Both the position numbers and the translations under genes were made by a program. From the NCBI GenBank assembly GCA_964597545.1, contig CAZQXN010000011.1, positions 1 through 60,268 of the forward strand: a stretch of 60,268 bases of DNA. The letters run 5' to 3'. The DNA comes from an uncultured Planctomycetia bacterium (lineage in GTDB: Bacteria; Omnitrophota; Gorgyraeia; 1-14-0-20-64-10). Shown here one piece after another: positions 17,657 through 33,470 of this stretch (positions within the stretch are counted from its first letter, which is position 1; each line of letters opens with the position of its first letter). The notes under the pieces are model-generated. The model was not told where the DNA came from, did no database searches, and worked only from the letters and a program-made list of their open reading frames with translations.

Positions 17657-19204
17657 TTAAACGTCGAAGTACAGCTGGAACTCCCAGGGGTGGGGCCGGA
17701 GTCGCACGGCATCTACTTCGCGCGTCCGCTTGTACTCAAGCCAGGTATCAATAACATCCTGGGTAAAGACACCCCCTTTCAACAGAAAGGCATGATCCTT
17801 CTCCAAAGCATCCAGGGCACGCCTCAAGGAACCGGGGACCTTCGGGATCTTGGACAGCTCCGAGGGCTTCAACTCAAACAGATCCTTCTCCAGCGGCTCT
17901 CCCGGCTCAATGCGGTTCTGGATACCGTCTAAGCCCGCCATCAACAATGCTGCAAAGGCAATATACGGGTTGGCCGCGGGATCCGGAGGACGGAACTCAA
18001 TCCGCTTGGACCTAGGATTCGTCGAGTAGACCGGAATCCGGATGGCCGCTGAGCGGTTCCTCTGGCTGTAAACCAGGTTCACCGGCGCCTCAAACCCAGG
18101 CACCAACCGCTTGTAGGAGTTGGTGGTGGGCGCGCAGAAGGCCATCAAGGCCCGACCGTGCTTGATGAGGCCGCCTATGTACCAACGGCAGATCTGGGAG
18201 ATCAACCCATACCCCTTGGCATCGTAGAAGAGGGGCTTGTCCCCGTTCCACAGCGACTGATGGGTGTGCATGCCGGAACCATTGTCGTTGAACAGGGGCT
18301 TGGGCATGAAGCTGGCAACCAAGTTGTGGGCCCGAGCCATGTTTTTTACGATGTACTTGTACAGCATCACCCTGTCCGCCACGCGAACGAGGCTGTCGAA
18401 CTTCATGTCGATCTCACACTGGCCGGCGGTCGCCACCTCGTGGTGGTGAACCTCGATGGGAATCCCCGCCCGCATAAGTTTTAAGGTGATGCGGCTTCGG
18501 ATATCCTGCAGGGAGTCGTGCGGCGGCACCGGAAAATAGCCCTCCTTGAACCTCGGCTTGTAGCCTAAGTTCGGCTTCTCGTCCCGGCCGGTGTTCCACT
18601 CCCCCTCCATGGAATCGAGGTAATAGTAACCGGACTGCTCGTTTTGGTCGTAGCGAACGTCGTTGAAAAGGAAGAATTCGCACTCCGGACCGAAGTAGCA
18701 GTCGGTAGCGATCCCCGTAGCCCTGAGATAGTCTTCGGCCTTCTTGGCGATGTAGCGGGGATCCCGGGAATAAGGCTTGCGGGTCAGTGGATCGTAGATG
18801 TCGCAGACAACCGACGCTGTCGGTGTCTCGCAGGCAGGATCCACAATGACGGTCGTGGGATCCGGAATCAAGATCATGTCCGACTCATTGATCTTCTGGA
18901 AACCCCGAATCGAAGAGCCGTCAAACCCGATGCCGTCCACCCAGATGGAGGTGACCAAATCATCCATGTGGGTCATCTCTGAAACCGGGATGGTGAAGTG
19001 CTGCCACAGGCCGGGAAGATCGTTGAATTTCAAATCAACCATCTCGATCCGGTTGTCCTTAAGGATCTTGACCGCCTTGCGCACATCATCCTCATCGACC
19101 CGGATGTGGCCGACGGTGTCATTGGCGCGGACCGCGCGCGGCGCTGCGCGCGCAGGTAATTTCTTCGGATCTGTCTTGACCTTCCTTTTGGCCATCGCCT
19201 TCAT
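17657..19204 (-). CDS. glnA: Glutamine synthetase, type I (longer paralogue with a basic N-terminal extension)
   Basis: FDGSSIRGF, GPECEFFLF, HHHEVATAGQCEIDMKF, NGSGMHTHQSLW and NSYKRLVPGFEAP. The position matching the E. coli adenylylation Tyr reads KDLFEL (Phe). The start could instead be the second Met (19195). Confidence 0.9.
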   Translation of the reverse strand: MKAMAKRKVKTDPKKLPARAAPRAVRANDTVGHIRVDEDDVRKAVKILKDNRIEMVDLKFNDLPGLWQHFTIPVSEMTHMDDLVTSIWVDGIGFDGSSIRGFQKINESDMILIPDPTTVIVDPACETPTASVVCDIYDPLTRKPYSRDPRYIAKKAEDYLRATGIATDCYFGPECEFFLFNDVRYDQNEQSGYYYLDSMEGEWNTGRDEKPNLGYKPRFKEGYFPVPPHDSLQDIRSRITLKLMRAGIPIEVHHHEVATAGQCEIDMKFDSLVRVADRVMLYKYIVKNMARAHNLVASFMPKPLFNDNGSGMHTHQSLWNGDKPLFYDAKGYGLISQICRWYIGGLIKHGRALMAFCAPTTNSYKRLVPGFEAPVNLVYSQRNRSAAIRIPVYSTNPRSKRIEFRPPDPAANPYIAFAALLMAGLDGIQNRIEPGEPLEKDLFELKPSELSKIPKVPGSLRRALDALEKDHAFLLKGGVFTQDVIDTWLEYKRTREVDAVRLRPHPWEFQLYFDV

Positions 19205-19285
19205 GCCTCCAAGTGGTTGTATGCGGCTAGTATGGGATGCGGCAGTTACTGGCAGATTACAGAAATGTTAAATCTGGATTACAGG

Positions 19286-19339
19286 ACAAAAATGGGGACG
19301 GTCCATAAAGGGACACACCACCTCATATGGACTGTCCCC
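19286..19339 (-). terminator. Intrinsic terminator downstream of the secretin gene (end of the T2SS-like operon)
   Basis: Reverse-strand RNA GGGGACAGUCCAUA-18 nt loop-UAUGGACCGUCCCC (13 bp plus one A.C mismatch), followed by AUUUUUGU. Confidence 0.6.
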
Positions 19340-19353
19340 AAATGGAACGTCCC
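19294..19353 (-). repeat. Roughly 60-nt GGGAC-rich repeat element, copy 1
   Basis: The reverse complement gggacgttccatttggggacagtccatatgaggtggtgtgtccctttatggaccgtcccc aligns with 58153-58211 read on the plus strand. The first 21 nt and ggtgtgtccctttatg are identical. Confidence 0.8.
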
Positions 19354-19357
19354 TAGG

Positions 19358-21415
19358 TTATTCGCCGTACTGGATGGGGATCTTAAAGGTCTTGGGTTCC
19401 TGGGTGAGGCGATCAGGAAAAGGAGGATATGGAGAAGCCTGTCGGACTGCCCGTATGGCCAGGCTGTTGAGGCGATTATTCCCGCTTTCGGCCACCTTCA
19501 CCCGTCCTTGGAGGCGGCCATCGGGCCTCAAGGTGAAGAGCAGCGCTACTGTTCCACTGACCCTGGGCGGCACCTTCTGCGCTGAGACAGCAGTTTGGAT
19601 CTTGTTGCGCAATTGAAGGAAGTAGCTGTCCATGCCTGCCGGCTTACGCTGTGCTGTGCGCATCGGCCCTGCGGGTTCAGGAGCCGCTTGTCTTGGGGGC
19701 AAAGCACGCGCACGCTCAACTCTACTTTCTGTGGCCCGCTTGGGCTGAATGTTGCTGATCGGTCGAGGCGCAATGGCTCTGGGCTTACGCGCAGCGGCGG
19801 GAGCAGGTTGCTGGACATGCGGCCGGGTCACCACCGGCAGGGTCGGTACCCGCTCAGTCGGAGTAAACTCACCCCGGCGGCCTGAAACCGTGCGGGCGGT
19901 CATAAAGACCACGGTCTCGGTCTTCTCGGTCTCCTCGTCACTGGAGCGGAAGAGGTAGCCCAAGAGCGGAATATCTCCCAAGAAAGGAATCCGCCTGTGC
20001 GCAACCGCCTCGGTATCCTGAATGAGCCCGCCCAAGATTACGGTTCCGCCGTCCTCGAGCAGAAGCACTGTCTCGGCCTCGGCGGTCTCAACGATCGGAA
20101 TCGTGTTGCCCTCGGAAGTCAACAACTCTCCGGTCTTGGAGCTGACCTTGGGAGCCACCTTCATCTGAATGAAGCCGTCCCGCGTAATGGTGGGGGTGAC
20201 AAAGAGCTCTACCCCGACATCAATGAAGCTGACCGACTCTGAGGTTACCACGGTGGTGTCTGACTGCGACTGCGAGGTGGTGACATAAGGATCCCGGGTG
20301 GCCACCAAGAACTTGGCCTCCTGGTTGTTGGCCACCAGCACCCGGGGCTCTGAAATGATCTCAGTGTCTCCAAAGGTCCGGAGGGCCTCAATGGCAAATT
20401 GATAATCCCCGGTGTTGCTCAAAGAGGCCGTGGCGATATCTAAGGCAAGGCCCCGCGTCAGATTCAACGCCCCCAAACCTTGCAGGGTGATTTTTTCGCG
20501 CGCTAAGAGATCCCAGTCAATCCCTAATTGAAATTCATCCCCCAAGGTCACCTGAAAGATCTTAGCCTCAATCAAAACCTGGGTGGTGCGCTCATCAAAG
20601 GCCTCGACTATCCGCGCAATGGCGACCTGTTTCTCAGGGTAGTCGGTCACCACTACTTGGTTGGTCCGTTCATCCACCACCATGACCCCCATGCCCTTGG
20701 TCAGCGTCTCATCCAGCAGAGGTGCCAAATCCTTGACGGCTCCATAATTGAGGCTGAAGATCTGGGTCTCCACCGGACGATCCATGCCCTCGACAAGCCC
20801 AACCATCTCACGGACAGTGTCTGCGCTGTCCATGAGGATTAGGGTGTTGGTCGACTCATCGGCGATCACCCGGCCCAAGTTGGTCTTGATCTGCGAAAGT
20901 GCCCGGCTTAAATCCGCTGCCTTGGCATACCGGGGGGTGAGAGACTTCAAAACGCGGGCGTCCTGGAAGGGTTCTCCGTGCAGAGTCTCATAATCCCTGC
21001 GGGTCATGATGGTAAGAATCTCGCCCTTGCGTTCATAGGCCAGCTCGTTGGCCGCTAAGATCACCTCCAACGCTTCCCAGGGATCAACATCCTTCACAAA
21101 GAGGGTCACCTTGCCTGAGACATTGCGCCCCGCCACAAGATTCAAGCCGGCCTGCTCAGCTAAGATCTTGAGGACCTCAACCACATCAATTCCCTGGAGC
21201 TGAAGCGTGATCGGAGCAGTATCAGAGGCCTTCTCTGCGGCCTGCGCCTGGCAAAGAGAGCCTCCCAGGCTTAAAACCAACCCCAAAACCAACACGAGAG
21301 CAACGGTGCCCTTACATTCTGGGATCCCTCGCTTCGCTCGGGATGGAATTCGGCCAGTGAACTTACGTTCGCCTGGCTCCGTAAGTCCAGGCCTCATTTC
21401 ACATCTGAAGTTCAA
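19358..21415 (-). CDS. gspD: Secretin (GspD/PilQ family) with a Pro-rich linker and a C-terminal TonB_C-like domain
   Basis: 685 aa. Signal peptide, N0-like domain (ITLQLQGIDVVEVLKILAEQAGLNLV) and secretin core (ISEPRVLVANNQEAKF...IPFLGDIPLLGYLFR). After about 90 aa of Pro/Ala/Arg-rich linker the last 91 aa match the TonB C-terminal pattern. Confidence 0.85.
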   Translation of the reverse strand: MNFRCEMRPGLTEPGERKFTGRIPSRAKRGIPECKGTVALVLVLGLVLSLGGSLCQAQAAEKASDTAPITLQLQGIDVVEVLKILAEQAGLNLVAGRNVSGKVTLFVKDVDPWEALEVILAANELAYERKGEILTIMTRRDYETLHGEPFQDARVLKSLTPRYAKAADLSRALSQIKTNLGRVIADESTNTLILMDSADTVREMVGLVEGMDRPVETQIFSLNYGAVKDLAPLLDETLTKGMGVMVVDERTNQVVVTDYPEKQVAIARIVEAFDERTTQVLIEAKIFQVTLGDEFQLGIDWDLLAREKITLQGLGALNLTRGLALDIATASLSNTGDYQFAIEALRTFGDTEIISEPRVLVANNQEAKFLVATRDPYVTTSQSQSDTTVVTSESVSFIDVGVELFVTPTITRDGFIQMKVAPKVSSKTGELLTSEGNTIPIVETAEAETVLLLEDGGTVILGGLIQDTEAVAHRRIPFLGDIPLLGYLFRSSDEETEKTETVVFMTARTVSGRRGEFTPTERVPTLPVVTRPHVQQPAPAAARKPRAIAPRPISNIQPKRATESRVERARALPPRQAAPEPAGPMRTAQRKPAGMDSYFLQLRNKIQTAVSAQKVPPRVSGTVALLFTLRPDGRLQGRVKVAESGNNRLNSLAIRAVRQASPYPPFPDRLTQEPKTFKIPIQYGE
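19361..19633 (-). other. TonB C-terminal-like domain fused to the secretin
   Basis: ...VSGTVALLFTLRPDGRLQGRVKVAESGNNRLNSLAIRAVRQASPYPPFPDRL...FKIPIQY follows the TonB_C pattern (G-V-hydrophobic strand, DG, SG, L-aliphatic-A-A, P-F-P). Confidence 0.65.
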
Positions 21416-22417: not shown

Positions 22418-23853
22418 CAGGGAGCGATACCGCTGGGCTGAAGCTGCAGCTCAAATTCCACGATTTCTCCCTCGTCCTTTTCCCTGGTTTTGGCGGAACG
22501 CAGGAAGACCCTGTCCCAAACCGCCTTTTCTCTGAGGGTAGCTGAAAATCGGGTCACATGACGCAAATCCGGCGCCAGACCCCGAAGGGTCAAGCCCTTG
22601 TTCGCTTCCAACCCAAAGAACTGCAGGGTCATCTCGGGCTCAAGGTAACGCACCGCCTCTGTCAAAAGGGACAACTCAAGAGCATAGGCTTGGCGGGCAG
22701 CGGCAAGGGCGCGGATAGAATCAAAGGACCACTGGATGCGGTTGACCCGGGGCGTAAGAGATTGAATCTGGTATTGCACCTGCTTGAGCTGCCACCCCGT
22801 CCCGCCAATCCGAGCGCCCGCCCAAACACAAGCCAAGGCTGCCCAAATCGCAACCAACAGAACAACCCTCCCAACTCGATGAGTAAGGGCTTGATGCTTT
22901 TGGTGGAGGCGGGTTTCAACCGGCAGCAGATCCAATTCCAGCAAGCGCGGTGCCGCCACCACACCCAAGAGCTCGGTAAAGGAGATCTCAGGGGCAAACT
23001 CTTTGACGGTGACGGCAAGGGATTCTCGGAAGGGGGAGTTCTCCAGGGGGTCCACTCGACGGACAGGCAGCTCCAGCAAATGCTCCAACTGTTCAACGGT
23101 TGCCCCCCTGCCCTCGAGCCAGCCGCTCACTGTGGCATGCGCCACCTGCGGTCCGATCCGTTCTCGATGATAGGCCTGGATGGTTTCTTGGAGTCGCCCG
23201 GCCATGTCGGTGACGCTGCCCGCAAGCCCAGACACATGGCGCATGTAAATGAGGGAACCTTGATCCAATACGCCAATATCCATTCCCTCGGAGGTCAGCT
23301 CTGCAAAAAGCCAAGCCCCGGCAGGCAGCTTCTCTCCTCCCGGGCTGCAGGCCTTGTGCCACTGGCCAATTGCTTCACTGGAAACAGCGATCTCGGTGAG
23401 GTCCAATCCGGCTTGAGCGCAAATCCGCACCAGCCGCTCGACAGTCGGCCGATGGGCGGCTGCCACCAAAACGCGAGTGGCCTCTCCTGCGGGTCCCACC
23501 ACCTTGACTGAAGTGACGCATTCATCCACCGGATAGGGCAGCACACCCTCCAGTTGATAGAAGGCCATCCCTTGAAGCTCATCCAGCTTGTCGGACGGAA
23601 GGGTGAGATAGCGCGTGAGAATCTCCCGCTTAGAAAGCAGGCCCACGACCTCCCGCGAGGATTCCGGAAGATCCCTTGCCAACTCCTTAAGGGCGGAGGC
23701 CAGCGCCACTTCGCTGGCATCCTTCACCTGGCGGGACTTCATCCCCAGCAGTTTAGGGATCCCTTTGCCGGTCCATCGGGCCTGAACCAACTGCACTTGG
23801 GTTTCTGTAACGCTGACCGCGGTCACAATCTGGGCCGTTTGACTACCCTTCAT
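22417..23853 (-). CDS. GspL-like protein (PilM-type actin-like cytoplasmic domain fused to a PilN-like TM/periplasmic domain)
   Basis: 478 aa. The N-terminal roughly 300 aa are cytoplasmic, followed by one TM helix (VVLLVAIWAALACVWAGA) and a periplasmic tail. It lies between gspK and the gspM-like gene. Confidence 0.6.
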   Translation of the reverse strand: MKGSQTAQIVTAVSVTETQVQLVQARWTGKGIPKLLGMKSRQVKDASEVALASALKELARDLPESSREVVGLLSKREILTRYLTLPSDKLDELQGMAFYQLEGVLPYPVDECVTSVKVVGPAGEATRVLVAAAHRPTVERLVRICAQAGLDLTEIAVSSEAIGQWHKACSPGGEKLPAGAWLFAELTSEGMDIGVLDQGSLIYMRHVSGLAGSVTDMAGRLQETIQAYHRERIGPQVAHATVSGWLEGRGATVEQLEHLLELPVRRVDPLENSPFRESLAVTVKEFAPEISFTELLGVVAAPRLLELDLLPVETRLHQKHQALTHRVGRVVLLVAIWAALACVWAGARIGGTGWQLKQVQYQIQSLTPRVNRIQWSFDSIRALAAARQAYALELSLLTEAVRYLEPEMTLQFFGLEANKGLTLRGLAPDLRHVTRFSATLREKAVWDRVFLRSAKTREKDEGEIVEFELQLQPSGIAP

Positions 23854-24718
23854 GCCATCCTCCTATGGTCGCTTGGGCTTGGGCCGACTCCCGGTTCAAT
23901 ACTGCCCTGACCCTTTGGCGAAGCGCGTGCCGCTTACTTACCCCCTCTGCCTCAATTTGAAACCAAGAAGAAGCCACTCCAATCACGCCGGATTGGATCT
24001 CGTCTGAGAGCACAGCTCTGTCCCCTGCAGGCAGTATAACTCCAGCTGCCTCCATATCGATCAGAATTGTGCCTGTTTCCTCAAATATCCTATCATCTTC
24101 GGTTCCCAAAACACCATCACTGCCTTTTCGATACGCCCCCACCAAATCCACCCCAGTTGCAGAGATCCCAAGCGCACTTAACACCTCAGGGTACACGGTA
24201 TTGAGATTCATGGGGCCCACTCCATGCACAGTCACCAGGGGCGCAAGCGTCTCTAAGTCATCGGCAGAAAGACCAAAAACCTTCAGTTCCGCCAAATGCG
24301 CAATCGGTTTTGGCGTATCGGGATCGGTGATCCGCGCGATGAGATCGGCTGCAATCTGCGCGTCAAAACCAGGCAATGCTTGAAGGAGATCGAGATTGGC
24401 TGCATTGAGCGGAATGTGGGCTTGAAGATCAGAGATCTCGTACTGGAAGGAACCTGAGGCCAAGGAGATGGGCTCCTCAGGGGTTTCCCGCCACCAGGGT
24501 TCAGCCGGAGCGTCAAAACCAGCGGCTGTATCCAAAAGCATGCGGGCAGCAGCCGCCTGGACCGCCGTGTGAGCCAAATGCCAAGCTTGGCGTGACTCTC
24601 GAAGCCGGCCCACCCATTTGACTTCCAAAGCAACACGGGTGGCCTGCGTGATGCCGAGAATGGTCAGTACCGCCGCGCCCCACAAGCTGAGGATCAGCAC
24701 AGAGCCCCTCTGCCGCAT
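23843..24718 (-). CDS. gspK: Minor pseudopilin GspK-like
   Basis: 291 aa. MRQRGSVLILSLWGAAVLTILG is the GspK-type N-terminus (no Glu+5). Helix-hairpin-helix-like repeats follow. Confidence 0.65.
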   Translation of the reverse strand: MRQRGSVLILSLWGAAVLTILGITQATRVALEVKWVGRLRESRQAWHLAHTAVQAAAARMLLDTAAGFDAPAEPWWRETPEEPISLASGSFQYEISDLQAHIPLNAANLDLLQALPGFDAQIAADLIARITDPDTPKPIAHLAELKVFGLSADDLETLAPLVTVHGVGPMNLNTVYPEVLSALGISATGVDLVGAYRKGSDGVLGTEDDRIFEETGTILIDMEAAGVILPAGDRAVLSDEIQSGVIGVASSWFQIEAEGVSKRHALRQRVRAVLNRESAQAQATIGGWHEG

Positions 24719-24719
24719 C

Positions 24720-25334
24720 TTACGCCTCCTCCGGCGGAATCAAAACACCGTGTGGAAGCCAGAAATCCCGCGTCACGTCATGCGCCCTTCCCTCGGCATC
24801 CTCGGCGGCAAGCCGCACTCGAAGGAACTTAGGTAACGCATCGTCCGGCTGCCATGTATCGAGATACAGCAGCTCGCCCGGTGCCTCGCCCTGATAGGCG
24901 TATGTCATAGAAAAACGGCTGACTCGACCTACCAGCCTTTGGGTCACCACCTCCTCCTCCTCTGTCTCAGGAAAAGCCAACCCTTCCCGAATGAGGACTG
25001 AATCTTCCCCCACACCCTGGAGCGCATAGCGCACCTGCCGCAGCCCAGTCGCCCCCTCGCTCTTTAAGAAAACCATCTGCCCGGCTTCGCCCACAAAGGG
25101 TGAATCGGCCAGGACGACGGCGTTGCGCAGCTCCTCTGCCATCCGGTTAAGTCCGCGCTCCACCACAAAAAAGATCTGGAGCCGCCCATCCGCCCGCTGC
25201 CAGGCAGTCAGCCCCCTCCCCAATACCAGCACCGCTGCAACGCCGATCACAACAGCCAGAGAGGTCGCGACAACCAATTCCAATAAGGTAAATCCCTTGC
25301 AGCCAGCTCCAAGGCGCCTCGGCCGCCGGGTCAT
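24720..25334 (-). CDS. Minor pseudopilin, GspJ-like (prepilin-type N-terminus)
   Basis: 204 aa. KGFTLLELVVATSLAVVIGV carries a prepilin cleavage/methylation motif. Confidence 0.65.
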   Translation of the reverse strand: MTRRPRRLGAGCKGFTLLELVVATSLAVVIGVAAVLVLGRGLTAWQRADGRLQIFFVVERGLNRMAEELRNAVVLADSPFVGEAGQMVFLKSEGATGLRQVRYALQGVGEDSVLIREGLAFPETEEEEVVTQRLVGRVSRFSMTYAYQGEAPGELLYLDTWQPDDALPKFLRVRLAAEDAEGRAHDVTRDFWLPHGVLIPPEEA

Positions 25335-25723
25335 TGCGTCCCCGCTTCCGGCGAAAGCCCCGTGGCAATCCGAACAGAACGTTCATGCCCCCGAAATCCC
25401 CAAAAAACCTGGGTGGTAATCTTTTGAAGGGTTTGCTCTGCCTCTATGGGCTCAGGCGCTGAAACCTCCCAGCGGAAGATCCCCTCTTGGCCTTCAGTTT
25501 CAACGGGGAGTTGCTGCGTATGGCGCGCGAGTGCCGCGATTGTCTCGCGATCTGCAAGGGCAGAGGCAGCTAAGGTATGGTCTAAGAGGCGTGTGACATT
25601 CAGATGGCGGCTGAAGACTGCAGCCCCTAGGATGAGGGCGGTTACGAGGATAGCGAATGCTACTAAAACTTCGATGAGGGTGAACCCGAGTGGGGCCCTG
25701 CGCCCCATCGGATTCAAAATCAT
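25331..25723 (-). CDS. Minor pseudopilin, GspI/GspH-like (prepilin-type N-terminus)
   Basis: 130 aa. LGFTLIEVLVAFAILV carries the prepilin motif. Confidence 0.65.
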   Translation of the reverse strand: MILNPMGRRAPLGFTLIEVLVAFAILVTALILGAAVFSRHLNVTRLLDHTLAASALADRETIAALARHTQQLPVETEGQEGIFRWEVSAPEPIEAEQTLQKITTQVFWGFRGHERSVRIATGLSPEAGTQ

Positions 25724-26169
25724 GGAGAGGCGCCCGAGCCCCCTTCCCAGTTGCCGATGTCGTCGCTGGTCCCCTCAGTACCATCGGGCCCAACCGAGAA
25801 GAGGTCGTAATCGCTTGGGTTCTGCGTTCCCGGAGTTTGATAATGATAAGGACGCTTCCAGGGATCTAGGGGGGTACTTTTAAGGTACGGACCCCGCCAG
25901 TTTTCTACATCCGCCGGGAGGGCTCGCAGGGCCTCCAACCCCTGCTCTTGGGTGGGGTAAGCGCCGGTATCTACCTCAAAGAGATCCAGCGCCAAGGGGA
26001 TATTGGCCTGCACATCTGCCGTGGCCCGAGCAATCCGAGCCTGCTGAGTCCGCCCGGCAAGCCGAGGGACCACCATCGCCACTAAGACGCCCAGGATGGT
26101 GACCACGATCAGAAGTTCTACCAGGGTAAATCCTCTTTCGTCATTGCGAGCGAAGCACAGCCATCCCAT
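25720..26169 (-). CDS. gspG: Major pseudopilin GspG
   Basis: 149 aa. ERGFTLVELLIVVTILGVLVAMVVPRLAG, then DLFEVDTGAYPTQEQGLEAL and GPYL...DPWKRPYHY, typical of GspG. Confidence 0.85.
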   Translation of the reverse strand: MGWLCFARNDERGFTLVELLIVVTILGVLVAMVVPRLAGRTQQARIARATADVQANIPLALDLFEVDTGAYPTQEQGLEALRALPADVENWRGPYLKSTPLDPWKRPYHYQTPGTQNPSDYDLFSVGPDGTEGTSDDIGNWEGGSGASP

Positions 26170-26177
26170 TCTGCGTA

Positions 26178-27389
26178 TTATCCTACATTAAAATTTAGTT
26201 GAAAGATAGGCAGTAGCATCGAGAAGACAATGCCGCCCACCACCAGGCCTACCAGCAGGATCATCACCGGTTCAATCAAGCTACTCATGGTTTTGACTGA
26301 TCGATCCACTCCCTGGTGGTACCGCTCTCCTGCTTGGGCAAAGGCCCGGGCCAAATCCCCCTGGGCCTCTCCCATGGCGACCATGGTCAGCAAGAAAGCC
26401 TCTCCAACTCCGCCTCGCCTTAAGCTCGCTGAGAGGGCCATCCCCTCCATCACATCCCGCTCACTGCGCTTCATCTGTGCCCTGAGCCGGCTTAAACCGA
26501 CTGTGGCGCCACTCAAGCGAAGGGCCTCCGGAAGGGGCAGCCCATGGGCCAGCAAAAGCCCGAGTGTCGAGGTGAGCCGAGCCATCTCCCCCTGTTCTGC
26601 CAAGCGGCCAAAGAGAGGAATATGGCGCAAGAGGTTCATTCCCCAGGCCCCAATCGGAATCTTCAGCCAGCCGGATCTTACTGCCAACCATCCGGCAATC
26701 AGCAGCAGCAATCCCAGGCCCGCCGCCCACACCAACCCCTGGCCGGATTGAATCATCATATTCGTCATCCAGGGCAAGGGCTGGCCGGTCTCTTCAAAGA
26801 GAAGCCCAAGCTTGGGTACAACAAACCAAATGAGCGCACTGACGGTAGCCAGCCCCACCAACATGACAAAGGCCGGATAAACCAAAGCCCCGCGCACTTT
26901 GGAGACAAGCTCGGACTCAGCCTCTACCTGCCGGGTCAGGGCCTCTAAGACCTGCTCCAACGCCCCGCCGGCCTCTCCGGCCTGAATCAAGGCCACAGCG
27001 ACTGGCGGGAAGGAAGCGCTTACCTGCGTCATCCGCATGGCATCTGCCAGATTGGCCCCACCGGTAACTTGGGCCTCCAGAAAGGCGGCCACCCGCCCCA
27101 CAGGACGTCCGGATTCCTGCTCTGCCAACAGGTGCAGTGCCTGGGTCAGGCTTAAACCGGCCTGCAAACCCTGACCAATGGTGCGGGCCCACAAGGCAAG
27201 ATCGGCTTGGCCGAGCGCTCGACGCCCAAGTGCCCCGGCGGGTGCCCCCTTTTGCTCCAAGGGAACAACCTCCAAGGGAAACAAACCCATTTGCTTAAGG
27301 TGCTGAACAGCAGCAGTCCGATCCATCGCCTCCACAACCCCTGAGGCGTCGGTTCGCTTATCCTGCTTGGCTCGGTAGGTAAATTGCAT
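26178..27389 (-). CDS. gspF: T2SS inner-membrane platform protein GspF
   Basis: 403 aa. Duplicated T2SSF-type domains and three TM segments. Sits between gspE and gspG. Confidence 0.88.
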   Translation of the reverse strand: MQFTYRAKQDKRTDASGVVEAMDRTAAVQHLKQMGLFPLEVVPLEQKGAPAGALGRRALGQADLALWARTIGQGLQAGLSLTQALHLLAEQESGRPVGRVAAFLEAQVTGGANLADAMRMTQVSASFPPVAVALIQAGEAGGALEQVLEALTRQVEAESELVSKVRGALVYPAFVMLVGLATVSALIWFVVPKLGLLFEETGQPLPWMTNMMIQSGQGLVWAAGLGLLLLIAGWLAVRSGWLKIPIGAWGMNLLRHIPLFGRLAEQGEMARLTSTLGLLLAHGLPLPEALRLSGATVGLSRLRAQMKRSERDVMEGMALSASLRRGGVGEAFLLTMVAMGEAQGDLARAFAQAGERYHQGVDRSVKTMSSLIEPVMILLVGLVVGGIVFSMLLPIFQLNFNVG

Positions 27390-27438: not shown

Positions 27439-29076
27439 TTATTCATTTTCAAGCTCCGTGACGCGAAGGACCTCTTCCTCGGTGGTAAGACCCATCTCGA
27501 CCTTTTTCATGCCGTCTTCCCGGAGGGTCCTCATCCCCTTGGACCGGGCAAGCTTGACAATCTCCCCTGCAGGCGCCCGATCGGTAATGAGCTTTCGGAT
27601 GTCATCGTCCAAAATAAGGAACTCTGAGATCGCGGTCCGCCCTTTGTAGCCGGTCTTGCGGCACTCTTGACATCCCTTGCCCCGGCATGCTGTACAGGTG
27701 AGCCGAACCAACCGCTGGGCAATGGCGCACTCCAGGGAGGAGGCCACCAGGTAGGGCTCAATCCCCATGTCCAACAAGCGCGTCATGCAGCCGGCTGCAT
27801 CGTTGGTGTGCAGGGTTGAGAAAACCAGGTGACCGGTCAGTGCCGTACGGATCGCAGTCTCAGCGGTCTCAAAATCCCGAACCTCACCCACCATAATGAC
27901 GTCGGGATCATGCCGGAGAATGGATCTGAGCGCCGAGGCAAAGGTAAAGCCGATCTTGGGGTGCACCTGCATTTGCGTGATGCCGGAGATCAAATATTCA
28001 ATGGGGTCTTCAATGGTGATCATCTTGCGCTTGCGGTCGTTGATGTGGGAAAGGCACGCATACAGAGTGGTGGTCTTGCCGGATCCGGTAGGCCCGCTCA
28101 CAAAGATGATGCCATGGGGCTTGGTGACCAAACGCTCCAAGATCTTGCGGTGGTCTTCAAACAACCCCAACTGCTCTAACCCCAAGAAGATGTTGGTGCT
28201 TAAGATCCGGATCATCGCCGCTTCGCCAAAGGGAGTAGGTAAAACCGAGATTCTTAAATCCAGCTCGCGGCCCGCCACCTTGACCTTGGCTCGACCATCC
28301 TGGGGCAGCCGGTGCTCAGCCACATTGAGCCGCGCCATCACCTTGATCCTGGAAACAATCCCCGGATGAAACCGCCTGATGCCGTCGGGAACCGGGATAT
28401 CGTACATCACCCCGTCGATCCGAACGCGAATCATCAGGGTCTTCTCATAGGGCTCCAAGTGAATGTCGGTGGCGCTGTCCCGAATGGCCTCTAAAAAGAG
28501 CTGGTTGACAAACTTGATGGTGGAGGCCTCTCCCCCGATCTTGTCCAGATCAGAGACCGCCTCCGAGAGGGTTGTGGCGGTGGCAGAGAGTTCCTCTGTC
28601 GCCACCATTGCTTCAACCGTCTCGGCCCCGACACCGTAATGCTGACGAATGGCCTCTGAGAGCTCGTGAGAGCTCACTGCCGCCGGCTGGATCTCGGCAT
28701 GGGTCAACATGCGAAGCTCATCCACCACACTGGTATTTAAGGGGTCCTCCATGGCAACGATCAGGGTTTTGCCTTGGCGGGCCACCGGAAGGACATGGTA
28801 GCGAGTGACAATCCGGGCTGGAACCTGCTTAATGAGCTCTGGATCAACGGGGCGCTGCTTGAGGGAGACAAAGGAGATGTTGAGCTGTTCGGCTAAAACC
28901 GGCAAGAGTTTCTCTTCCGAAGCCACCCCCATTCGGGCCAAGGTTTGGCAGATGGGGGGCACACCCTTGTTCTTCTTCTGGCGCTCCAGGGCATCCTCCA
29001 GCTGCTTCTCGGTGATCACCCCGGCCTCGATCAAGAGCTTGCCGATCTTCTTGTTGTGCCGCTTTAAAACCATCAT
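27439..29076 (-). CDS. gspE: T2SS/T4P assembly ATPase GspE
   Basis: 545 aa. N-terminal T2SSE_N-type domain, Walker [14 protein letters not shown], Asp and His boxes, and a tetracysteine motif CTACRGKGCQECRKTGYKGR. Confidence 0.92.
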   Translation of the reverse strand: MMVLKRHNKKIGKLLIEAGVITEKQLEDALERQKKNKGVPPICQTLARMGVASEEKLLPVLAEQLNISFVSLKQRPVDPELIKQVPARIVTRYHVLPVARQGKTLIVAMEDPLNTSVVDELRMLTHAEIQPAAVSSHELSEAIRQHYGVGAETVEAMVATEELSATATTLSEAVSDLDKIGGEASTIKFVNQLFLEAIRDSATDIHLEPYEKTLMIRVRIDGVMYDIPVPDGIRRFHPGIVSRIKVMARLNVAEHRLPQDGRAKVKVAGRELDLRISVLPTPFGEAAMIRILSTNIFLGLEQLGLFEDHRKILERLVTKPHGIIFVSGPTGSGKTTTLYACLSHINDRKRKMITIEDPIEYLISGITQMQVHPKIGFTFASALRSILRHDPDVIMVGEVRDFETAETAIRTALTGHLVFSTLHTNDAAGCMTRLLDMGIEPYLVASSLECAIAQRLVRLTCTACRGKGCQECRKTGYKGRTAISEFLILDDDIRKLITDRAPAGEIVKLARSKGMRTLREDGMKKVEMGLTTEEEVLRVTELENE

Positions 29077-29198
29077 ATGCCTCTATGATAAGTATTCCAC
29101 ATTGCGGCATGCTCTGCACCAAAAATTTTCCTGGAAACGCAAGCCCTGTCCCTGTACACCCCGGGGGTGTATAGTCGGCAGCTTGGGCCGGCTTGAGA

Positions 29199-32100
29199 TC
29201 ACCGCACCCGGATCTTGAAGCGCCGCTTGGGGGAAACGCCCCCTTTGGAATCGATCGCTTCCACAGACCCACTATAGAGCCCTCGTCTTGGGTAGCGGTA
29301 CCAGAAGTAGCAACGGGTCTTTGTCCTCTTCCTGCCGTCCCCAAAATCAAAGCGATAGCGGATCCGATCTCTATCGGGGTCGGTGGCCCAAACGTAGAAC
29401 AAGGCCCAGCGCCCCCACCAAGACCCACACCAGAAGTACCGGATGACCGGAGGGTCGTTGGCAGGGAGAACCCGGACGCTTCTGGTCTCTTCGGTCTTGC
29501 GGGTAAAGCCGTAGACCGATTCGGTCACGGTGAGCTTGACCGGGTAGGTTCCCGGAGAGGCATAGGCGTGGCGGGCAATCCGCCTGGTGGAGGTGATGCC
29601 GTCGCCGAAGTTCCACAGATAAGTGATCGGATCATCCTCGTCATCATAAGCAGATACCGCAAATACGCCCTCCTCCCCTTCGGCTACCTGCGCGGGCGTG
29701 CGGACCGAAGCGATCTGGGCCTGGTTGTTGAGGGCCCCGATAACCGTCAGAACATCCAAAGTAGTCAAGAACCTGTCACCGTTGACATCATAGTACGGAG
29801 GCGGTCCGAATTCGTTGGTAACACGCGGCAGTTTCCCTCCGGGTGGCAGGCGCCCGCCCAAAGAGGAGTTTACCGCGCTCACTAAGATGAGCACATCCAA
29901 GGTGGTCAGCATGCCGTTTCCGTTGATATCGAGAGGATTGTCCGGGTTCTGCCAGGGATGAGGGTTCTCGTAGATGACGAGGGTCTGATCTGCGCTGACA
30001 TCGCTGCGCGTTGTTGTGCCGCCGCTCGGCCAGTGGACAACAACGCTATCAGCCGTCAGATGGTTGCCGAGTCCGAAATGCATCGGGCTTTCCTCAAGAT
30101 CATCGCTGTTGCGCATCGTTTTGGCCTGCTCCAGGCCTTCAGCGGCAACAATGACTCGAGCCCCCAAACCGAAGCTATTGCTTGCATGTCCATCAAGTTG
30201 AATTTTCAGCCAGTGGTTTTTCGGATCTCCGAATATGTCGGAATAACGATTCTCATACAAGCTAAGATACCCCTCCATCTGGTGAGCGTTCAGGATGTCC
30301 AGATCACCGTCGTTATCATAGTCGGCGTAGGCGACAAAACTGCCGAAGTTGCTTCCGTAAGCTCCCGACTCAAATGTCCGGTCAGTAAAGGAAACCCCCT
30401 GCTCATTATGCAGGAGATAATTCCCCCCGACTCCTCCAGTCAAGTAGAGATCCAGAAACCCGTCGTTGTCGTAATCTAGAAATTGCGCTCCCTGGGGTCC
30501 GATCACCCCTAAACCCCCCATCTCAGAAAACATCCGGTCTGTATAATCCCAAAAGGACCCGTCACCACAGTTCTGGTAAAGGCGCGTAATGCGTTTAATC
30601 CGTTCAAAACCTTCGTACTTATATACCCATATACCCGCAAGGAAAAAATCTGGAAATCCATCGTTGTTATAATCCCCTACGGCAATTGCGCTAGGCCTAT
30701 TCATTTTAATTCCAAAGCAGACCTTTCGGAAACCTCCATCCCCCTGGTTCATATAAAATTGCAACCCATTCACCCCCGCGGGCGCCCAGGCACCAATGAT
30801 TAAATCCATAAAGCCATCCACATTGAAATCAATCACTTGAGTGTTGGCATAGGCATAACCCATTGCGCCCGAAAGACCAGCTCGGCTCGTTACGTCCTCG
30901 AAGCGATTGTTCCCCAAATTCCGCATCAGCGTAACAGGCGGAGCGGGCAACAGAATGTCCACATACCCATCGTTGTCATAGTCAAAAAACACTGGGGTTA
31001 GGGGACACTGTTCAAAAACCGGCAATCCCGACGATGCCGTGATGTCGGCGAAGCCCCCGCCGCCGCTGTTCCTTAAAAGGCGGGGTCTATCTTCATCAGA
31101 CGGAATGACCAAAAGATCGAGATCTCCGTCATTATCAATGTCCGCAGCCTTGCTCTGCCAAAACGGTCTGGGAAAAACAGATGTCGCTTCAAACTTCCCT
31201 GCCGCCGGGTTAAACAGGTAGCGATGCTCCGGGCTGGCGATCAGGTCAGCATACCCATCCTGATTGACGTCGGCAAAGGTGACACCCCAACTGCCGGAAT
31301 AGATGCTGTAGAGAAATGTGATGCCTTTCTCCTCCGCGACATCCTGAAAGAAAGTGGGTTGCAGACGAATAGCGCCCTCTGAGCGCAGAATCGTCTCGCC
31401 CTGAGAATCTGTCGCCCTCAGCGTGAATCTGATCTCGTCAGAGAATGCCGCACCGCTGTTTAATCGAATACGAAATGGATCGGATGCGTTCTCGGCGGTT
31501 TCACCGGAAGCGATTTCACCAAGCAGCCACTCGCCCTCCTCCACGGCAACTTCCGGATGCGTAGCTTCCAGGAAAACTTGAACGCCGTCAGCATCCTCAA
31601 AGATGCTGTGCAGGCGCACAATCAGTTCGAATGTCTCTCCCGGGAGCACCTCTCCCTTGAATCTGTACTCCTCCAGGACAAGCAGGGGCTGGCTCTCGAC
31701 CGCAAGGGCGCGCTCTATATTGAGCCGCCCGGCTCCCATGAACCCTGCGCAGTCGCCCAAAAGCGAATCGATCGAATCCGCTCCCAAGCGCAGGCGGGCA
31801 TGAATTTCATCCGGGGAGGCGCTGGGATACTGGCTCAAAAGGATGGCAGCGGCCCCAGCCACGTGAGGGCCGGCCATGGAGGTACCGGCCAAACGAGCGT
31901 AGCCGGGGGCGACAATAAGATCTTCCCGTTTAGCAATGATTTCCAAACTGCTTGGAATTGCAGAGAGGATGTTACGGATGTCGCGCCCACGGCCACTCCC
32001 GGGAGCCGAGACATCAACCGCCAGTCCAAAACTGGAGAAAAAAGAGCGCTGATCGTCCTGAGCGGTTGAACCAACCGTAATAACCGTTTCCAAGCTCGCA

Positions 32101-33470
32101 GGCACCGCTACCGAGATCGAAACGTCATCGTTACCGGCAGACGCCACAGAGGTCATCCCAAGCCCGTGGGCATACACGAAGGCATCCTGCAAGGTCCGGC
32201 TGACATCTACAATACCCCATGAGTTGTTGGAAACGCCGGCACCGTTCTCTGCCGCATACGCAATAGCAATGACGAGATCTGAGACCATCGCGGCAACAAA
32301 CTCTTGAACGGTTCCCTCAACAATACCTTCATCGCTGAACACCTTCAGCGGCATGATCTCGGCCCCCGGCGCCACGCCAACCACGCCAAGACCGTTGTTT
32401 CCCGTCGCCGCGATCGTGCCGGCCACATGGGTCCCATGGCCGATCTCCTCGTCCATCGGGTCATTATCATCAGCCCAGAAATTCCAACCCCGCACATCAT
32501 CAACGTAACCGTTGCCGTCGTTATCAACGCCGTCGCCGGGAATTTCCCCTGGATTGGTCCAGATGTTGGCTTCTAAATCTTCGTGCATGTAATCAACCCC
32601 AGTGTCAATAACTGCTACCGTGACACCCTCTCCTTGCGCCGTCTGCCAAGCCTCGGGAGCGCTCACCTTCAAAATTCCCCAAAGGTCCTCGTATTCCTGC
32701 CCCCAAGCCCCTTCGGTCCAGCTCCCGTCAGGGGCCGCATAGGTATCGTTGGGTGGTGTCTCCGGAAAGGCGTGCAATCGAGCGAGAAAGTCGGGCTCAG
32801 CGTACTCCACAGCCGGATCAGCGTTATAGCGGGCGATCATGGGGGTCAAGTCTTCTGACTCTTCAACCTGAATAACATAAACCTGATCCAAATTGGAAAA
32901 CGCCCCTTCGCCCTGCTCCTGAAGACGCTCTACCCGGCTCACCAGCTTCTCTTGAATCTCTACCTGGCGGTCCAAGAGCGCCTTCTCTCTGGCAACCCTG
33001 GCCTCATAATCCTTAGACTCTTCGGAATCCTTATCCTTCCACCAGTACCAACGGCCATGGGATTGTCCGCTCACCAGCTCCGCTCGCATACGGCGAAGAA
33101 CATTAAGTCGCCCTGAAAGAGAGAGACGTTCGGGCAGCAATCGATTGACCGCGGTTGCCCCAAACTGCGTATTGAGCTTCGATAAACTCGAGAGAGACTG
33201 CCCTTCTTTGAGTTTGACGATGATCCGGCCAGGGACAAAACGAGGCCTATCGTGAACCGCAACTGTCGCCTGCTCGTTGTTCGCCCCATCATCAGAGCGG
33301 AGAGGGTCCAGCGGTAGAATCCAAGGCACTCGCCTGTCTGTCTGGCCACCGGCATCAGAAGTATTCTGGTTTTCCTCTGAAGCGGCCAATAGTGCCGTTG
33401 GGGTTTGCAAAAGCGTAATAGAAATAGCCAAAATAATAGCTGCGGCTCTATGGATTGTTCTACTTCTCAT
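29199..33470 (-). CDS. 1423-aa secreted multidomain subtilisin (S8): propeptide, S8 catalytic domain, FG-GAP/VCBS repeats, two dockerin-like repeats, a PKD domain and a conserved C-terminal module
   Basis: Signal peptide MRSRTIHRAAAIILAISITLLQTPTALLAA. Catalytic triad contexts AVIDTGVDYMHEDL, GHGTHVAGTIAA and GTSMAGPHVAGAAAIL. Repeated DxNxDGxxD motifs (DVNQDGYADL, DIDNDGDLDL, DYDNDGYVDI). DINGNGMLTTLDVLILV and DVNGDRFLTTLDVLTVI are dockerin-like. WNFGDG...HAYASPGTYPVKLTV is PKD-like. Confidence 0.88.
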   Translation of the reverse strand: MRSRTIHRAAAIILAISITLLQTPTALLAASEENQNTSDAGGQTDRRVPWILPLDPLRSDDGANNEQATVAVHDRPRFVPGRIIVKLKEGQSLSSLSKLNTQFGATAVNRLLPERLSLSGRLNVLRRMRAELVSGQSHGRWYWWKDKDSEESKDYEARVAREKALLDRQVEIQEKLVSRVERLQEQGEGAFSNLDQVYVIQVEESEDLTPMIARYNADPAVEYAEPDFLARLHAFPETPPNDTYAAPDGSWTEGAWGQEYEDLWGILKVSAPEAWQTAQGEGVTVAVIDTGVDYMHEDLEANIWTNPGEIPGDGVDNDGNGYVDDVRGWNFWADDNDPMDEEIGHGTHVAGTIAATGNNGLGVVGVAPGAEIMPLKVFSDEGIVEGTVQEFVAAMVSDLVIAIAYAAENGAGVSNNSWGIVDVSRTLQDAFVYAHGLGMTSVASAGNDDVSISVAVPASLETVITVGSTAQDDQRSFFSSFGLAVDVSAPGSGRGRDIRNILSAIPSSLEIIAKREDLIVAPGYARLAGTSMAGPHVAGAAAILLSQYPSASPDEIHARLRLGADSIDSLLGDCAGFMGAGRLNIERALAVESQPLLVLEEYRFKGEVLPGETFELIVRLHSIFEDADGVQVFLEATHPEVAVEEGEWLLGEIASGETAENASDPFRIRLNSGAAFSDEIRFTLRATDSQGETILRSEGAIRLQPTFFQDVAEEKGITFLYSIYSGSWGVTFADVNQDGYADLIASPEHRYLFNPAAGKFEATSVFPRPFWQSKAADIDNDGDLDLLVIPSDEDRPRLLRNSGGGGFADITASSGLPVFEQCPLTPVFFDYDNDGYVDILLPAPPVTLMRNLGNNRFEDVTSRAGLSGAMGYAYANTQVIDFNVDGFMDLIIGAWAPAGVNGLQFYMNQGDGGFRKVCFGIKMNRPSAIAVGDYNNDGFPDFFLAGIWVYKYEGFERIKRITRLYQNCGDGSFWDYTDRMFSEMGGLGVIGPQGAQFLDYDNDGFLDLYLTGGVGGNYLLHNEQGVSFTDRTFESGAYGSNFGSFVAYADYDNDGDLDILNAHQMEGYLSLYENRYSDIFGDPKNHWLKIQLDGHASNSFGLGARVIVAAEGLEQAKTMRNSDDLEESPMHFGLGNHLTADSVVVHWPSGGTTTRSDVSADQTLVIYENPHPWQNPDNPLDINGNGMLTTLDVLILVSAVNSSLGGRLPPGGKLPRVTNEFGPPPYYDVNGDRFLTTLDVLTVIGALNNQAQIASVRTPAQVAEGEEGVFAVSAYDDEDDPITYLWNFGDGITSTRRIARHAYASPGTYPVKLTVTESVYGFTRKTEETRSVRVLPANDPPVIRYFWCGSWWGRWALFYVWATDPDRDRIRYRFDFGDGRKRTKTRCYFWYRYPRRGLYSGSVEAIDSKGGVSPKRRFKIRVR

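Follow-up and report, generated by a model that had tools for sequence, protein, structure and literature searches.

In a 60,268-nucleotide stretch of DNA from an uncultured bacterium of the phylum Omnitrophota (positions 1 to 60,268 of contig CAZQXN010000011.1, assembly GCA_964597545.1), hereafter the window, the last gene of a type II secretion system (T2SS) operon encodes a 685-aa secretin that ends in a flexible periplasmic tether and a folded TonB/TolA-type domain. The fusion is real and conserved, and as a variant of a known machine component it is apparently undescribed. Without help secretins do not get to the envelope, assemble in it or stay fixed there, and the known helpers are lineage-specific. 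The phylum, whose members are ultrasmall and probably host-dependent or predatory, appears to use a tethered, inverted TonB head for this, and to have done so at least twice on different secretins.

The reading frame (Table 1) opens with a TTG at 21415, which is preceded by AGGAG, and closes with a stop codon at 19358-19360; an alternative ATG lies at 21397. Read from the TTG, the N-terminus (MNFRCEM...) is colinear with those of homologues, e.g., MRFGCKEM.... Judged by eye, the putative signal peptide has a long n-region, the hydrophobic core TVALVLVLGLVLSLGG and a likely cleavage site between AQA and AE. The Secretin family (PF00263) matches residues 344-510 with 155.9 bits against a gathering score of 27.5, and a genome search places this match at 19886-20386. 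Two copies of Secretin_N score 88 bits in Pfam, with STN and GspD N0 below threshold; no AMIN, LysM or OmpA-type module was found in the protein by the Pfam scan. The original prediction, made from the sequence of the window, described a normal N0/secretin core followed by about 90 aa of Pro/Ala/Arg-rich sequence, and both parts are borne out. The core ends at ...TETVVFMTARTV (...VVFMTARTV), residue 510, and the linker that follows (residues 511-597) contains 16 Pro (18%), 14 Arg and 14 Ala, with a net charge of about +11. The interval then singled out, 19361-19900, correctly covers the linker and the C-terminal domain.

Two Pfam families score above their cut-offs at the C-terminus: TonB_2 (PF13103; 32.6 bits vs. 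22, residues 596-680, positions 2-84 of the 85 in the profile) and TonB_C (PF03544; 30.9 bits vs. 24.6, residues 619-683). In NCBIfam, TIGR01352 (tonB_Cterm) also passes, with 38.5 bits vs. 27.1, whereas tolA_full stays below threshold at 26 bits. In domains of this kind, called GspD-type below, the Pfam match begins only at profile position 13-14 and the region of the YP motif is absent. An alignment of 43 C-terminal domains (A1) was the basis of a consensus, Y.Y...I...KG.V.V.FTL..DG.L.G.P.V..S...L...A..AV..ASPFPPFP....F.I.L.Y, in which the conserved motif is ASP[FY]PPFP, and of a profile. Against the sequences of the PDB the profile retrieved the C-terminal domain of Helicobacter pylori TonB (E = 3e-7), then HasB and TolA.

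The last 93 aa were modeled by AlphaFold2 with a predicted local distance difference test score (pLDDT) of 87, as a helix-strand-strand-helix-strand (alpha-beta-beta-alpha-beta) fold. The best 25 Foldseek matches of this model in the PDB are exclusively C-terminal domains of TonB, TolA (domain III), HasB and FusB, with template modeling scores of up to 0.67. In the model of the full-length mature protein (overall pLDDT 82.8) the N0-N3 domains exceed 90, the barrel is confident and the C-terminal domain is above 90; residues 466-532 in mature numbering fall below 50, and the linker is thus predicted to be disordered. The best Foldseek matches of the whole model are PulD, GspD, ExeD, PilQ and InvG, and its N-domains match PulD and XcpQ. 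There are no S-domain helices after the barrel, in this model or in the sequence, and the linker begins directly after residue 510, so that the new domain lies, as had been proposed, where S-domains normally sit. The TonB_C match claimed at the C-terminus also stands, with Secretin and TonB_C both above cut-off and the TonB/TolA-type fold recovered by the structure prediction. Assignment to the classical type is a different matter: with a helix at its N-terminus, an SPFPPFP segment and no YP motif, the modeled layout fits TonB_2/TolA-III at least as well.

That a sequencing or assembly error had joined a secretin gene with a separate small TonB-like gene was a concern from the outset, and it is now extremely improbable. 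Two separate seawater-metagenome runs gave Logan contigs, assembled sequence and not raw reads, that match 19200-20260 and 19367-20329 without a mismatch or a gap; two independent assemblies agree base for base over the secretin-linker-domain junction. The identical architecture recurs in more than 100 homologues with 38-88% identity and in 71 of 77 species loci. The closest database relative, 88% identical overall, keeps the linker (75%, with one indel) and the domain (90%). An assembly or frameshift artefact was rejected on the spanning contigs and on the recurrence among homologues, and the fusion is taken as genuine.

The architecture is inherited across much of Omnitrophota and is not a singleton. 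The domain is present in 104 members of a set made up of the query and 120 listed homologues (121 in total), without exception at the extreme C-terminus. In a scan of one genome per species, 393 genomes had relatives of the secretin; the best 80 of these are nearly all Candidatus Omnitrophota, and of the 77 species-level open reading frames that could be called in the 80, 71 have the fused architecture. The GspD-type fusion is found in at least about 32 of 201 evenly sampled genomes of the phylum. Within Omnitrophota, the phylum that saturates the top matches of the homologue survey, the secretin/TonB_C architecture is widespread. Some members are named 'TonB family protein' or 'TonB C-terminal domain-containing protein' at NCBI; as a pipeline label for these secretins 'TonB family protein' is misleading.

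Linkers in this family are 19-102 aa long (median 47). In the clade nearest to the query it is about 22 aa long and not Pro-rich, and most family members likewise have 20-50 aa without Pro-richness; within the family the long basic Pro-rich spacer is confined to the query and the two relatives closest to it. Family members compared in pairs are on average 0.63 identical in N0-N3 and 0.60 in the barrel, as against 0.35 in the domain and 0.25 in the linker. Since its identity lies between those of barrel and linker, the domain is constrained, yet less so than the secretin core. A distant clade (about 40% identity; P0037-P0121) shares, in the stretch that joins the barrel to the TonB-type domain, a conserved motif of 25-30 aa, SGE.YTDFSEIKPKDGAVAKMEKGNIVTEK. 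The clade of the query lacks this motif, which could form a small structured element or act as a strand ligand.

On a tree of the secretin cores, the domain-less orthologues require about eight changes of state, at least five of them forced by well-supported branches. The module has repeatedly been lost, and is accessory. Fission in the domain-less lineages was considered and ruled out: no TonB-like gene follows the domain-less secretin of a fully syntenic operon (L010), and no detached GspD-type domain was found in the domain-less genomes G201 and G202. In the 3-kb flanks of 77 loci, the only recurrent genes are those of the T2SS upstream, with nothing recurrent downstream. In one genome (G119, contig C3:289444-290914) the fused secretin is followed, after about 1 kb and in the same orientation, by a free TonB-like gene of 225 aa, the sole case noticed of the two adjoining each other. 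At another locus (L040:2881-6561, (+)) the secretin frame extends to 1226 aa, by a further fusion or a lost stop codon.

In other Omnitrophota the domain profile also matches Tad-type RcpA/CpaC secretins (pil_N + Secretin), in frames of 530-590 aa and of 690-720 aa, with a classical C-terminal TonB_C that scores 47-65 bits and has the YP motif (loci L092, L093, L095, L099, L101 and L102). The frames of middle length that were sampled are only longer TonB-like proteins. In the domain tree the GspD-type domains form one clade (support 100/99) and the Tad-type domains another (100/97), which has certain free TonB domains as its sister group (98/95). On a long branch, the domain of a GspD-like secretin from a different family joins other free TonBs. 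Because the two types form separate supported clades, secretins have captured TonB-type heads at least twice independently. Repeated capture argues for a secretin-specific advantage, and for a target common to more than one system. Two giant coiled-coil proteins of one genome (G065), one of 2670 aa with an N-terminal hydrophobic segment (L097:240-8252, (+)) and one of 1012 aa (L098:47-3085, (-)), have C-terminal domains that nest inside the GspD-type clade; they look like TolA-like proteins that acquired a secretin-type head.

The gene codes for the outer-membrane secretin of a T2SS. All three NCBIfam equivalogs tried fall short of their cut-offs (GspD, TIGR02517, 224 vs. 351; PilQ, 270 vs. 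284; MshL, 169 vs. 250), and since the GspD cut-off is missed, the assignment is made from the operon context of GspE, GspF and GspG. The secretin is the last gene in the order gspE-F-G-I-J-K-L-M-C/B-D.

The genome (2.04 Mb, 61 contigs, 93% complete) also has TonB-family components of the conventional kind. Two free TonB-family proteins of 199 and 220 aa (C10:37445-38708) adjoin its single TonB-dependent receptor on contig C10 (39259-41223). The sole MotA/ExbB-family gene stands with exbD on contig C22, and this exbB-exbD pair (23161-24251) is directly upstream of a cluster of PilM-like (570 aa), PilN/O-like and secretin (536 aa) genes (C22:23161-29558); the arrangement recalls PocAB and type IV pili. 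In this genome the T2SS operon has no genomic linkage to exbBD, tonB or a TonB-dependent receptor. No TolB scored above cut-off in the genome, and a TolA-TolB-type interaction was set aside as unlikely on that ground.

Elsewhere the anchoring of secretins is the job of pilotins with S-domains, of the AMIN domains of PilQ and of GspA/GspB scaffolds. By binding peptidoglycan the AMIN domains give the machine its position (PMC5285504), and GspB/OutB fastens the secretin both to peptidoglycan and to the inner membrane (PMC9239104). We propose, with about as much doubt as confidence, that the tethered domain is a motor-independent periplasmic anchor or assembly module, which would replace the S-domain/pilotin or the AMIN- and GspAB-type anchors. 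As the structures of GspD and PulD with S-domain and pilotin show, secretin barrels have their C-terminus at the rim in the outer membrane, facing the periplasm; an oligomer would thus carry a ring of tethered domains there. The secretin is presumably a 12-15-mer like other secretins, and the domains would hang from the periplasmic rim of its barrel. Each would probably bind a partner by beta-strand addition, as its fold relatives do, or possibly peptidoglycan, and the 87-aa basic Pro-rich spacer may give the domain a longer reach in the lineage of the query. The N-terminus of the protein consists of a signal peptide and secretin domains rather than a transmembrane helix that could engage ExbB or TolQ. 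As the protein has neither a membrane helix nor a tie to an ExbB/ExbD motor, we infer that the domain cannot itself transduce energy, which points to a passive anchor that would aid the assembly or placement of the secretin ring in the envelope, or its retention there. Repeated loss without fission, the lack of a conserved partner gene in the flanks and the weaker constraint on the domain argue for an accessory, generic role.

Several points weigh against such an anchor. Synteny of the 77 loci yields no dedicated binding partner. The established activity of the C-terminal domains of TonB and TolA is the binding of short peptide strands of specific partners, and binding of peptidoglycan by this fold is reportedly described in older work, which the literature searches did not bring up. 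The secretin works without the domain, as the repeated losses indicate, so the contribution of the domain could be small or conditional. A linker of 19-102 aa is hard to reconcile with a single target at a fixed distance, and a monomer model from AlphaFold2 is blind to contacts inside an oligomer. Direct binding of the ring to peptidoglycan, perhaps aided by the basic linker and in the manner of the AMIN domains of PilQ, would be a sub-case of the anchor and is in our judgment somewhat unlikely. A multivalent ring would suit a polymeric ligand, the secretin has no peptidoglycan-binding module of the AMIN, LysM or OmpA type, the linker of the query is strongly basic, and the fact that two different secretin systems captured such a domain suggests that its target in the envelope is generic. 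However, peptidoglycan binding is not an established property of TonB-type domains, and the genome already has two OmpA-type peptidoglycan binders.

The fusion may also be read as a Rosetta stone, in which TonB-type C-terminal domains are natural ligands of secretins and the tethered domain binds its own N0/STN-like domain, a strand of the linker or a neighboring subunit. It would then staple or regulate the ring, as a free TonB paralogue would do elsewhere in trans (PocAB-TonB3 in Pseudomonas aeruginosa). A covalent secretin-TonB-domain fusion that arose twice, independently and in two secretin classes, predicts such a physical interaction. PocAB-TonB3 is needed for the assembly and localization of type IV pili, the N0 domain of PilQ resembles the signaling domain of FpvA, and the same authors suggested a contact between TonB3 and N0 (PMC5285504). 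The title of one paper connects TonB2 with natural transformation in Acinetobacter baumannii (PMC8811193), and in the present genome it is a PilM/N/O-secretin cluster that the only exbB-exbD pair directly precedes. The SGE.YTDFSEIKPKDGAVAKMEKGNIVTEK linker motif could serve as the strand ligand in the distant clade, but the clade of the query lacks it, and the homologue consensus has no conserved TonB-box-like motif between the signal peptide and N0. The full-length model, with its disordered linker, gives no confident intramolecular arrangement, and by an estimate from known secretin dimensions the linkers of about 22 aa in the nearest clade probably could not span the distance between the barrel rim and N0. 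We consider binding to the secretin itself unlikely.

Coupling to the Ton system is, in our estimate, quite unlikely. Here the domain would bind the TonB box of a TonB-dependent receptor or pair with the C-terminal domain of a free TonB, and uptake and secretion would be co-localized or the secretin pulled upon by the motor. The free 199-aa TonB of the genome gives a full-length match to the secretin-domain profile (E = 4e-12), and the Tad-type domains, sister to free TonB domains, have kept the YP motif. TonB boxes lie at the periplasmic face of the outer membrane, where even short linkers should reach them, and TonB-dependent receptors (Plug domain) are present in 181 of the 201 sampled genomes. 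Against this, at least three fused genomes of good quality among those listed (G005, G021 and G197) have no Plug domain, a rate equal to the background of about 10%; no dependence of the fusion on TonB-dependent receptors is visible in the 201 genomes, a comparison of low power as these receptors are near-universal in the phylum. The GspD-type domain is without the region of the YP motif, a static domain sitting on TonB boxes would block uptake, and the T2SS operon is unlinked to exbBD, tonB or a TonB-dependent receptor gene in this genome.

Compared with known systems, the query protein is closest in structure to GspD, PulD and ExeD (6HCG, PulD-PulS-PulC; 5ZDH, GspD-AspS), with which it shares N0-N3 and the barrel, the position as last gene of a gspE-F-G...D operon and a C-terminal appendage at the place of the assembly and targeting module. 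It differs in having a disordered tether and a TonB/TolA-type domain in place of S-domain helices or a pilotin-binding segment, and in scoring below the NCBIfam cut-offs of GspD, PilQ and MshL. With the C-terminal domains of TonB, HasB and TolA (5LW8, 6SLY, 2M2K, 6S3W, 1LR0, 2GSK) it shares the fold, at profile scores above cut-off, and in its lineage a Pro-rich spacer also stands before the domain, as one does in TonB. The topology is inverted, with the domain on an outer-membrane channel instead of on an inner-membrane helix, and the ExbB/TolQ-binding transmembrane segment, the YP motif and the linkage to exbBD are missing. The AMIN domains of PilQ and the GspA/GspB proteins (ExeAB, OutB) are accessory fasteners of secretins to the wall or the inner membrane (PMC5285504; PMC9239104), the role proposed for the domain of the query, but their folds are unrelated, AMIN is N-terminal, GspA and GspB are separate proteins, and for these peptidoglycan binding has been shown. 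In PocAB-TonB3 a TonB-type protein is likewise functionally linked with a secretin machine, through the suggested contact to PilQ N0 (PMC5285504); it acts in trans and is attached to a motor, whereas the domain of the query is covalent and motor-free. The Tad-type RcpA/CpaC fusions have the same succession of secretin, tether and C-terminal TonB-type domain in the same phylum, and differ in the secretin class (pil_N), in the classical TonB_C with YP motif and in their separate clade.

No description of a secretin-TonB/TolA fusion was found in the literature that could be searched, which included genome papers on Omnitrophota and a survey, from 2025, of how TonB and TolA evolved; this agrees with the original supposition that the fusion had not been characterized. 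A 2026 preprint lists 'TonB C-terminal domain' genes that flank giant genes, with the architecture unrecognized. New here are the lineage-specific long Pro-rich linker, the independent capture by Tad-type secretins, the repeated loss without fission and the finding that no dependence on TonB-dependent receptors is seen. The fusion suggests that secretins have a further class of accessory module, a new one, and provides a handle on the envelope architecture of Omnitrophota, and it may bear on the need for TonB paralogues in the pili of proteobacteria. Should the domain prove to be a ligand of secretins themselves, Omnitrophota would have hard-wired at least twice what proteobacteria do in trans with PocAB-TonB3 and TonB2; this would explain the long-puzzling requirement for a TonB paralogue in pilus assembly and competence, and would indicate which domain-partner pairs to test.

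Table 1. Features of the secretin fusion gene and of the T2SS operon in the window.
Feature	Position	Strand	Basis
Secretin fusion gene, 685 aa	19358..21415	(-)	Open reading frame list and translation
Signal peptide region, residues 1-59	21239..21415	(-)	Read directly off the sequence, without a signal-peptide predictor
Periplasmic N0-N3 domains, residues ~69-274	20594..21211	(-)	Pfam Secretin_N x2, AlphaFold2, Foldseek
Secretin beta-barrel/gate, residues ~279-510	19886..20581	(-)	PF00263, AlphaFold2 strands
Pro/Arg/Ala-rich basic linker, 87 aa, residues 511-597	19625..19885	(-)	Composition, low pLDDT
TonB/TolA-type C-terminal domain, 88 aa, residues 598-685	19361..19624	(-)	Hidden Markov models, AlphaFold2, Foldseek, PDB profile
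GspC-HR/GspB-like connector, 161 aa	21399-21884	(-)	Weak: T2SSB E = 0.006, GspC_delta E = 0.0015
GspM/PilO-like, 178 aa	21881-22417	(-)	Weak T2SSM_b and PilO; operon position conserved
GspL-like PilM/PilN fusion, 478 aa	22417-23853	(-)	PilM_2 35 bits, above cut-off; PilN and T2SSL weak
GspK-like pseudopilin	23843-24718	(-)	Match below cut-off
GspJ-like pseudopilin	24720-25334	(-)	Match below cut-off
GspI-like pseudopilin	25331-25723	(-)	Match below cut-off
GspG major pseudopilin	25720-26169	(-)	TIGR01710 138 bits vs. cut-off 88.85
GspF platform protein	26178-27389	(-)	Pfam T2SSF 161 bits
GspE ATPase with N-terminal MshEN	27439-29076	(-)	T2SSE 417 bits, MshEN 75 bits

The gene for the 161-aa GspC-HR/GspB-like protein overlaps the start of the secretin gene and is its conserved -1 neighbor in 62 of 74 related loci. 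The protein is bitopic, with a transmembrane helix, a Pro-rich spacer and a small C-terminal beta domain. At the other end of the operon, in the region 27439-33470 (-), the MshEN domain of GspE (75 bits) is of the type that binds cyclic di-GMP, and the operon lies directly downstream of a gene for a 1423-aa S8 protease. A gap of 153 nt separates the stop codon of the secretin from a co-oriented glutamine synthetase gene; no intrinsic terminator or sigma-70 promoter matching the consensus was found in 19150-19450, 3' of the secretin.

Three further secretins are encoded in the genome, none with a TonB/TolA-type domain, and all four have different C-terminal appendages. The paralogue of 598 aa (contig C25; L001:631-2427, (+)) has a helical tail resembling tetratricopeptide repeats (TPR), with TPR_6 just below its cut-off at 24.7 bits and weak YfiO/BamD-like and TPR_16 matches. 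The pilotins of type IV pili and of Tad systems are TPR lipoproteins, and this tail could be a pilotin-like module fused in cis.

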